The notes beneath the pieces are model-generated. The model saw only the letters and a list, made by a program, of their open reading frames with translations. It had not been told where the DNA came from and made no database searches. Positions 33,553-34,287 of a DNA stretch of 64,000 nucleotides are shown here, piece after piece; the first letter of the stretch is position 1; each line of letters starts with the position of its first letter. Both the position numbers and the translations under genes were made by a program. The stretch is from Eledone cirrhosa. Taxonomy: Eukaryota. The DNA is taken from contig OZ024740.1 in NCBI GenBank assembly GCA_964016885.1, positions 273,234,001 through 273,298,000 of the forward strand, in the 5' to 3' direction.

Positions 33553-33593
<41 letters not shown>

Positions 33594-33733
33594 AATTGCA
33601 CTTCAAGCATAGCTTTATACAATATGTAAAAATATTTCGTATCTCCAAAGAAATACAGTTTTAGGAAACCGTAGCTATACAAACACCGGGGGGCTAAGGC
33701 CCTCTGGTTTTTCCAGCAGAATCAAAGGGGACA

Positions 33734-33777
33734 ACCGTCTATGCATTTCAGGCTTAACTGGCCTTCGTCAGGACGGT
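33734..33777 (-). ncRNA. Minimal type I hammerhead ribozyme (left arm)
   Basis: Exact reverse complement of 34137-34180. Confidence 0.85.
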
Positions 33778-34136
33778 CCCTCCCACCGCTTGCGACTGCT
33801 GGACTAGAAGACAGCTGAGAATATATACTTTTCTCGTCTGTGTAAATGAGGGGATTAATCTCATTTACATATGAAGCTGCATATGTTGGTTCAACTTATA
33901 ATAAAAAAGAAATAGGATTTCGCTTCAAGCATAGCTTTATACAATATGTATACGAAATATTTATACATATTGTATAAAGCTATGCTTGAAGCGAAATCCT
34001 ATTTCTTTTTTATTATAAGTTGAGCCAACTTATGCAGCTTCATATGTAAATGAGATTAATCCCCTCATTTACACAGACGAGAAAAGTATATATTCTCAGC
34101 TGTCTTCTAGTCCAGCAGTCGCAAGCGGTGGGAGGG

Positions 34137-34180
34137 ACCGTCCTGACGAAGGCCAGTTAAGCCTGAAATGCATAGACGGT
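34137..34180 (+). ncRNA. Minimal type I hammerhead ribozyme (right arm)
   Basis: ACCGTC-CTGACGA-AGGC-CAGTTAA-GCCT-GAAA-TGCA-TA-GACGGT. Intact core, all stems pair, palindromic ATGCAT stem III, AUA site (cleavage after 34174). Confidence 0.85.
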
Positions 34181-34287
34181 TGTCCCCTTTGATTCTGCTG
34201 GAGATAACCAGAGGGCGTTAGCCCCCGGTGTTTGTATAGCTACGGCTTCCTAAAACTGTATTTATTTGGAGATACGAAATATTTATA

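Follow-up and report, generated by a model that had tools for sequence, protein, structure and literature searches.

A young family of 322-nt hammerhead repeats with Penelope-like insertion features in Eledone cirrhosa

The inverted repeat at positions 33588–34287 of the 64-kb stretch of Eledone cirrhosa DNA analysed here ("the window") is best read as one insertion of a protein-free 322-nt retrozyme into a TA microsatellite, likely written by the reverse transcriptase (RT)/endonuclease of a Neptune-like Penelope element that primed on both sides of the break. We put the probability of this reading at about 0.8. Judged by their sequences, the 322-nt repeats are a real, young hammerhead family that behaves like a non-autonomous passenger of Penelope-like elements (PLEs), and the features that identify them as such are described below.

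Structure of the element in the window

The element consists of two inverted arms of a non-coding 322-nt unit, arranged head to head and 96% identical over 680 aligned columns. The unit length given in the original prediction was borne out by a 19-nt word at 33950–33968 that recurs at 34272–34290 and fixes the period at 322; unit numbering in this report begins at window position 33950. The right arm (33950–34287, plus strand, 338 nt) contains unit positions 1–322 followed by 1–16, terminates at the proximal of two 3' sites, S1, and has no tail. The left arm (33588–33952, minus strand, 365 nt) contains unit positions 13–322 followed by 1–60 and terminates at the distal 3' site, S2, and hence is the tail-bearing arm. 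The Penelope-type tail (33588–33621, minus strand) is the part between S1 and S2; it is about 40 nt long in the family and has suffered a 5-nt deletion in the window copy. At their 5'-to-5' junction the two arms overlap by a 3-nt microhomology, ATA (33950–33952), which is read directly from the sequence. The central portion of the arms is identical, and both arms share rare variants at unit positions 98, 113, 239, 243, 257 and 286. A T6 run at 34006–34011 (plus strand, unit 57–62), the sole run of four or more T's on the sense strand of the unit, coincides with S2; it is missing from the older-subfamily copies that were read (see below).

The window copy is flanked on the left by a (TA)n target (33536–33587) and on the right by a (TA)n/(TG)n target (34288–34527); a target-site duplication of more than 4 bp was sought, and both flanks proved to be TA runs. 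The longest ATG-initiated open reading frame in the element encodes 43 amino acids, and its GC content is 0.41 (below 50%). The unit is of retrozyme size, as had been anticipated, since 322 nt lies within the 150–450 bp range used to define non-LTR retrozymes.

The hammerhead ribozyme

A type I hammerhead motif is present at 34137–34180 on the plus strand, with predicted cleavage after A34174, which is A225 of the unit, and the identical 44-nt motif occupies 33734–33777 of the left arm on the minus strand, where the cut is predicted 3' of 33740. The core CUGACGA lies at 34143 (plus) and 33771 (minus), and the remaining parts are stem II AGGC/GCCU, GAAA, AUGCAU, A17 (34174) and stem I ACCGUC/GACGGU; the suggested extension of stem I can form by GGG/CCC pairing of 34134–34136 with 34184–34186. 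A descriptor made of the core and stems I and II matches the 64-kb window at exactly these two sites and has no match in 60 shuffled versions of it, in agreement with the earlier claim of an intact hammerhead in both arms. Rfam gave no hammerhead family match for the 33588–34287 region or among the best 150 of 205 matches to the whole window. Helix I is 6 bp (extendable), helix II is 4 bp with a 7-nt loop, and helix III is 1–2 bp closed by the palindromic UGCA. By the definitions in PMC4209133 this is the canonical metazoan type I motif rather than a min-HHR, which is described there as having a helix II of 7–8 bp, a helix I of 4–5 bp, an unpaired base between positions 9 and 10.1 and no helix III; the window motif has a 4-bp helix II, a 6-bp helix I, no inserted base and a 1-bp helix III, and the label "minimal" in the original prediction is thus not appropriate.

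The isolated 71-nt motif is predicted to fold no better than its shuffles (z = -1.1), and the whole 322-nt unit folds better than its shuffles (z = -4.3). In the predicted fold of a circular monomer, helices I and II form with a probability of at least 0.89 and there is no helix III, and in a natural dimer (L087, G000:C1:283121152-283121670, minus strand), whose two exact ribozymes have a spacing of 327 nt, a double hammerhead is the lowest-energy predicted fold; this hammerhead is therefore predicted to need a dimer. The window locus carries one ribozyme and one cut site per strand and lacks the two consecutive ribozyme units that Li et al. take as the criterion for an "active" copy; such consecutive units are present in other copies, for example L087. 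Because its ribozymes are on opposite strands with one cut site each, the window locus can neither form a dimer in cis nor release a 322-nt monomer, and a transcript spanning it is predicted to fold into a single long hairpin (-598 kcal/mol). Tandem members of the family could, according to the fold predictions, do both. The proposal that the ATGCAT palindrome pairs between two copies is thus supported for the family by the predicted fold of the L087 dimer and by the predicted lack of a stem III in the monomer, but such pairing is impossible in cis at the locus for which it was made.

The family and its older subfamily

There are 2281 candidate places for the 322-nt family in the 3.0-Gb genome (40 were scored), and exact words recovered 895 junction 21-mers and 268 ribozyme 42-mers genome-wide, with none for the controls. 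The family is young, with a median distance of 3.6% from the commonest letters (164 segments). Head-to-tail repeats range from dimers up to about ten units at the level of the family. The single-armed array at L124:3631-6914 (G000:C2:83.92 Mb) has about ten units that are 85–94% identical to the window unit, with internal deletions and a repeated poly-C junction; such long arrays are scarce, and only three of 212 arms cross at least three cut sites. Contigs from four sequencing runs also contain the family (contigs of this kind are unable to show circles or ends), and the end of one contig led to an older subfamily (L191–L220). Its units are about 340 nt long and about 80% alike to those of the young family, have CUGAUGA in the core and mostly AUC at the cut site, and end at the same two sites, with no T run. 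It has 146 exact motif matches in the genome, of which 30 loci were fetched, including one (L203) that is a young copy.

The two window arms were aligned with 29 of these 30 loci (L199, which has a deletion, was left out). All four helix II base pairs and one helix I pair are altered on both sides, a total of five that was reached in 1 of 500 shuffles, a control that ignores relatedness among the copies; the search motif for the older copies had fixed the 5' strand of helix I. The stems that were predicted to pair therefore covary, and since these compensatory changes occurred while 10 of the 44 ribozyme columns changed between subfamilies, the hammerhead fold appears to be under selection. 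Within the young family the core columns vary by 2.5% compared to 4.2% elsewhere, to which no weight is given because the sample was partly selected for an exact ribozyme.

Two fixed 3' ends and one tail per pair

The insertion footprint was determined from 155 young-family loci, reduced to 212 arms, a sample partly selected for full-length match. The 3' ends of these arms lie at two fixed sites, 92 at S1 (unit 10–30) and 91 at S2 (unit 54–73), with 29 elsewhere; on finer placement S1 is at about 14–21 and S2 at about 57–60, some 40 nt apart. Microsatellite sequence lies directly beyond 149 of the 183 S1 or S2 ends. The arms form 77 head-to-head pairs and 58 single arms. Fifty-four pairs have one end of each type, two are S1+S1, one is S2+S2 and 20 have an unclassified end, so that 54 of the 57 classifiable pairs are mixed; the chromosome-1 subset, selected by junction words, contains 45 pairs (29 S1+S2, 2 S1+S1, 1 S2+S2 and 13 unclassified). 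The 5' ends are ragged and scattered, the arm junctions mostly overlap or abut within a few nucleotides, and the length of one arm of a pair does not correlate with that of the other (rho = -0.04, n = 54). An apparent cluster of 5' ends at unit 316 was found to be an artefact of the reference unit used. Opposite arms of a pair agree at subfamily markers (31/33, 38/41, 57/60 and 76/76, compared to 0.53–0.75 between loci), an agreement that could come in part from gene conversion within the palindrome; a fifth marker, unit position 61, was excluded, since in copies at the end of an arm this position already belongs to the TA target.

PLEs are described as having an inverted 5'-truncated copy, a 30–40 bp tail at one end and a bias toward microsatellites (PMC8557442), with the tail lying between two RT start sites (PMC11167929). 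The 322-nt family likewise has a tail at one end, an inverted 5'-truncated partner and a microsatellite bias, and its fixed 3' ends with the tail are the ordinary Penelope signature. It is most improbable that the palindrome is instead a fold-back formed at the DNA level, a MITE-like element or an assembly artefact, as might be supposed from the identical central portion of the window arms and from the other palindromes in the window; there is a 4% difference between the arms, their ends are unequal and conserved across the family, the inversion points differ among the 77 pairs, the 58 single arms have no partner, and in contigs from an independent sequencing run loose ends pass into TA at this same S2 site.

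Penelope-like elements and the fusions

The window contains a decayed Neptune-like PLE at 27835–31362 (minus strand) that is 89% identical to an intact member and has an inverted 3' piece (31098–31362) and a hammerhead-like core of its own. Its family has 17,992 candidates genome-wide, with open frames of up to 1304 amino acids, and the encoded protein has DKSG and YVDD motifs, a Cx4Cx2C linker and a GIY-YIG-like end. These features agree with the description of Neptune or Nematis in PMC8557442 and give a putative clade assignment made from motifs only. Pfam and PDB searches with this protein returned no significant match. Two further pieces of the window, 13836–14282 and 18981–19133, are 3' fragments of a second Neptune-like family, the same one that is fused to the 322-nt repeats at L224 and L229.

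Fusion to a Neptune-like element was seen in three insertions when the two subfamilies were taken together (185 fetched loci). At L011/L224 a unit arm is joined 5'-to-5', with an overlap of a few bases, to a truncated member of the second Neptune-like family, and at L212/L229 there is an equivalent 5'-to-5' fusion for the older subfamily. The second arm at L158 consists of unit positions 210–262 fused to the 3' piece of a third, more distant Neptune-like family. Mixed ends are found in only one of the three fusions, which involve two different Neptune-like families. The upstream part of the PLE was sought beyond the other end at the fusion loci and was not found there, so simple insertion of a unit into an older PLE is disfavoured.

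The unit gave no hits at 30 PLE loci and no significant nucleotide match to four 10-kb PLE regions, two to three PLE families being covered in all. The Neptune-like elements of this genome carry a different ribozyme motif (with a longer stem II) and a different 3' region, and folding of the 3' ends gave no obvious structure common to the unit and the Neptune-like tails. These comparisons bear on the idea that an unlocated autonomous Penelope-like element has the unit as its terminal repeat (pLTR) and that the copies seen are heavily 5'-truncated. Every mark of insertion is indeed that of autonomous PLEs (PMC8557442), and 24 of 57 Xenopus retrozyme families are reported to be homologous to known elements, nearly all of them PLEs (10.64898/2026.07.22.740005). 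Arms that extend upstream, however, re-enter the same 322-nt unit, up to about ten times, and never reach a shared ORF at a fixed unit position, and the PLEs examined differ from the unit in ribozyme and 3' region. No ORF linked to the unit was found in the family of the window PLE, in five 10-kb regions or in three regions with paired older-subfamily motifs, and an ORF with RT and GIY-YIG domains between pLTRs, the criterion for an autonomous PLE, is absent from the unit-bearing loci that were read. Two candidate 5-kb spacings turned out to be duplications around unrelated elements. We therefore consider a terminal-repeat origin unlikely and favour a passenger that uses a Neptune-like enzyme supplied in trans.

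The template for insertion

At least one cleavage site is crossed by 178 of the 212 arms, and six of the 212 have 5' ends within 4 nt of the cut site, compared to 5.9 expected; a cut linear monomer is therefore excluded as the main template. Taken alone, the S1 arms stop slightly more often than expected at the first cut site (3/88, p = 0.07). Among the 102 junction-sampled arms, 5' truncations number 0.26 per 100 nt up to about one unit length, where their rate climbs to 1.1, and beyond 350 nt the rate is still high (1.07 per 100 nt). Adjacent tandem units agree at subfamily markers in 15/16, 18/20, 29/30 and 37/39 cases (1/16, 2/20, 1/30 and 2/39 are discordant). The ten-unit genomic array is homogeneous at four of five markers, so that a linear transcript of it would look like the product of a circle. 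The sharing of markers and the truncation curve fit a circle and also fit an uncut transcript of a homogeneous array. Both window arms do exceed one unit length (365 and 338 nt compared to 322), as had been noted, but this was also taken to indicate a circular template, and with respect to that point an uncut multimer is also compatible.

We give roughly even odds to a template that is specifically a 322-nt circular RNA, in which case dimers would self-cleave, the monomers would be ligated and the enzyme would run round the circle. The arms that cross the cut site with no excess of ends there, the agreement of adjacent units and the climb in truncation near one unit length all favour it, as do the predicted activity of the dimer and the predicted absence of stem III from the circular monomer, and circles have been demonstrated for coral, mussel and axolotl retrozymes (PMC7229834). 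Against it are the truncation rate beyond 350 nt, which is what limited processivity would give, the homogeneous ten-unit array, the few discordant neighbours and the slight excess of stops among S1 arms. A template made by transcription of tandem copies in the genome and left as an uncut linear multimer, with a ribozyme that is slow or protein-gated and dispensable for insertion, has a substantial chance as well, though one that we would place a little below even. Arrays of two to about ten units exist, and in a recent preprint only one of nine Xenopus dimers cleaved and eight did not (10.64898/2026.07.22.740005); in work on a Penelope enzyme, the RNA that it mainly used in vitro is reported to have been unprocessed, and the ribozyme was dispensable for insertion in vitro (PMC11167929). 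The compensatory stem changes, which indicate that the fold is under selection, and the rarity of long arrays speak against a dispensable ribozyme and a multimeric source, respectively. On balance the more-than-unit template is about as likely to be a circle as an uncut multimer.

A putative U6-like promoter

Unit positions 95–143 contain a block that resembles a U6-type promoter, at 34044–34092 on the plus strand, in which an octamer-like ATGTAAATGAG (family ATGCAAATGAG) is followed after 32 nt by TATATA; the equivalent sequence pattern in the left arm is at 33822–33870 on the minus strand. The octamer has a C-to-T change in both arms of the window copy. By analogy with U6 spacing, the predicted +1 would be near 34117 (unit 168), so that helix I would begin some 20 nt downstream of it. 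The U6 genes of this genome (L231–L242) have a compact upstream layout with an octamer-like box at -76 to -78 and a TATA at -30. The octamer-TATA pattern, which was written after the sequences had been seen, is present at 7 of 12 fetched U6 loci (2/2 dispersed loci and 5/10 from one array) with a spacing of 35–37 nt compared to 32 in the unit, and 2 of 20,000 shuffled versions of the unit contain it. When the unit was aligned locally with the U6 upstream regions, the result was not significant (best 38/300 shuffles); alignment with one U2 upstream region gave 8/300 shuffles at an unrelated position, and no octamer was found within 400 nt of U2 in the two upstream regions checked. Only 1 of 80 columns differs between the subfamilies in unit 65–144; the corresponding numbers elsewhere are 8/64, 6/43, 10/44 and 3/74.

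By its sequence, the T6 run at unit 57–62 would terminate Pol III transcription once a single ribozyme had been made, and this is at odds with multimeric Pol III transcripts of the young family; since most copies nevertheless include the promoter region, the templates must stem from read-through or from another polymerase. The possibility that the main template is a Pol III transcript starting at the predicted +1 and ending in the T6 run was rejected, because 5' ends at unit 160–175 are no more frequent than expected (10/212 compared to 10.5) and because S2 is used in older copies that have no T6 run.

A possible route of insertion

The following route would account for these features. Tandem copies would be transcribed, possibly from the internal U6-like block, and adjacent hammerheads might pair through AUGCAU and so cut out monomers. 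A more-than-unit template may then be copied twice, once from S1 and once from S2, and the two cDNAs would be joined at their truncated ends. The window copy probably leads no further, since each of its strands has a single cut site and the octamer is altered in both arms.

More tentatively, and with somewhat less confidence than either template taken by itself, the family could be a self-promoted RNA circle that parasitises Penelope: each unit would carry a U6-like promoter, dimers would be cut and closed into 322-nt circles, and a dimeric Neptune-like enzyme would use two sites of one RNA molecule, 40 nt from each other, to prime both ends of a TA break. Were this true, it would explain why 54 of 57 pairs have a single tail, why the arms share markers and why synthesis slows after one lap, and the occasional fusions would be cases in which the enzyme's own RNA had been loaded at the second site.

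Other repeats in the window

Several other repeats were seen in the window. A different head-to-head repeat (14285–15270), whose arms are 98.7% alike, has a hammerhead-like core, CUGAGGA...GAAA, in both arms, and inverted 112-nt arms with a variant core, CCGAAGA...GAAA, lie immediately to the left of the 322-nt pair (32724–33440). The region 40471–42670 contains a tandem repeat with a 592-nt period and inverted arms that are 100% identical and adjoin TA runs; a pattern search found no hammerhead core in it, and it is either a very young element or an assembly feature. A 630-nt palindrome (5117–5746) is 98.7% self-complementary and has no core motif by pattern search. An LTR-retrotransposon-like fragment with an RVT_1 match (34824–36225, minus strand) lies 540 nt to the right of the 322-nt pair. 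A dispersed repeat of about 160–180 nt, a SINE-like size, is present at 11496–11682 and about ten other places with 75–95% similarity, and at 45543–47885 a 15-nt sequence with extreme strand skew is present as 161 tandem copies.

Relationship to known systems

The 322-nt repeat is, by its sequence-level features, a new family within the known class of non-LTR retrozymes. Like the metazoan members of that class it has a non-coding unit (322 nt, 41% GC), a type I hammerhead and head-to-tail copies, and it coexists with PLEs (PMC7229834; 10.64898/2026.07.22.740005). Its 1-bp helix III with a palindromic tetraloop is matched by that of axolotl HHR_Amex1 (330-bp unit), whose weak helix III goes with much better cleavage as a dimer (PMC7229834). 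Unlike those retrozymes, the 322-nt family consists mostly of dispersed one- or two-armed insertions with fixed ends and has few long arrays. In the Xenopus preprint many families have pLTR homology, and none was detected for the 322-nt unit in comparisons with two to three Neptune-like families. Direct fusions to PLEs do not appear in the available text of PMC7229834 or 10.64898/2026.07.22.740005.

The family resembles Neptune/Nematis-type PLEs in its inverted 5'-truncated partner, one-end tail, TA targets, partial tandems and two 3' start sites downstream of the ribozyme (PMC8557442, PMC11167929, PMC4209133), and differs from Neptune-like elements in that the unit has no ORF, has a canonical ribozyme and shows no above-chance nucleotide similarity to them. 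Newt satellite 2 is also similar, with a unit of about 330 bp, a dimer-favoured hammerhead and an internal snRNA-type promoter (PMC6155905, PMC7229834; the promoter is cited in PMC2220036), but it is reported to be transcribed by Pol II, whereas the block in the 322-nt unit follows the U6 arrangement of octamer and then TATA.

Literature searches turned up no paper on the 322-nt family or on the one-tail-per-pair rule, a point on which supplementary files may bear. The retrozyme papers, as far as their available text goes, propose PLEs as likely helpers and circles as likely templates and demonstrate neither. The window locus adds one family and some quantitative support to this picture and is not a new kind of system. 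What the family offers is a concrete handle on how retrozymes enter DNA, in the form of mapped start sites, a near-strict rule of one tail per pair and three fusions to Neptune-like elements, and the fusions nominate candidate helper enzymes for retrozyme insertion.
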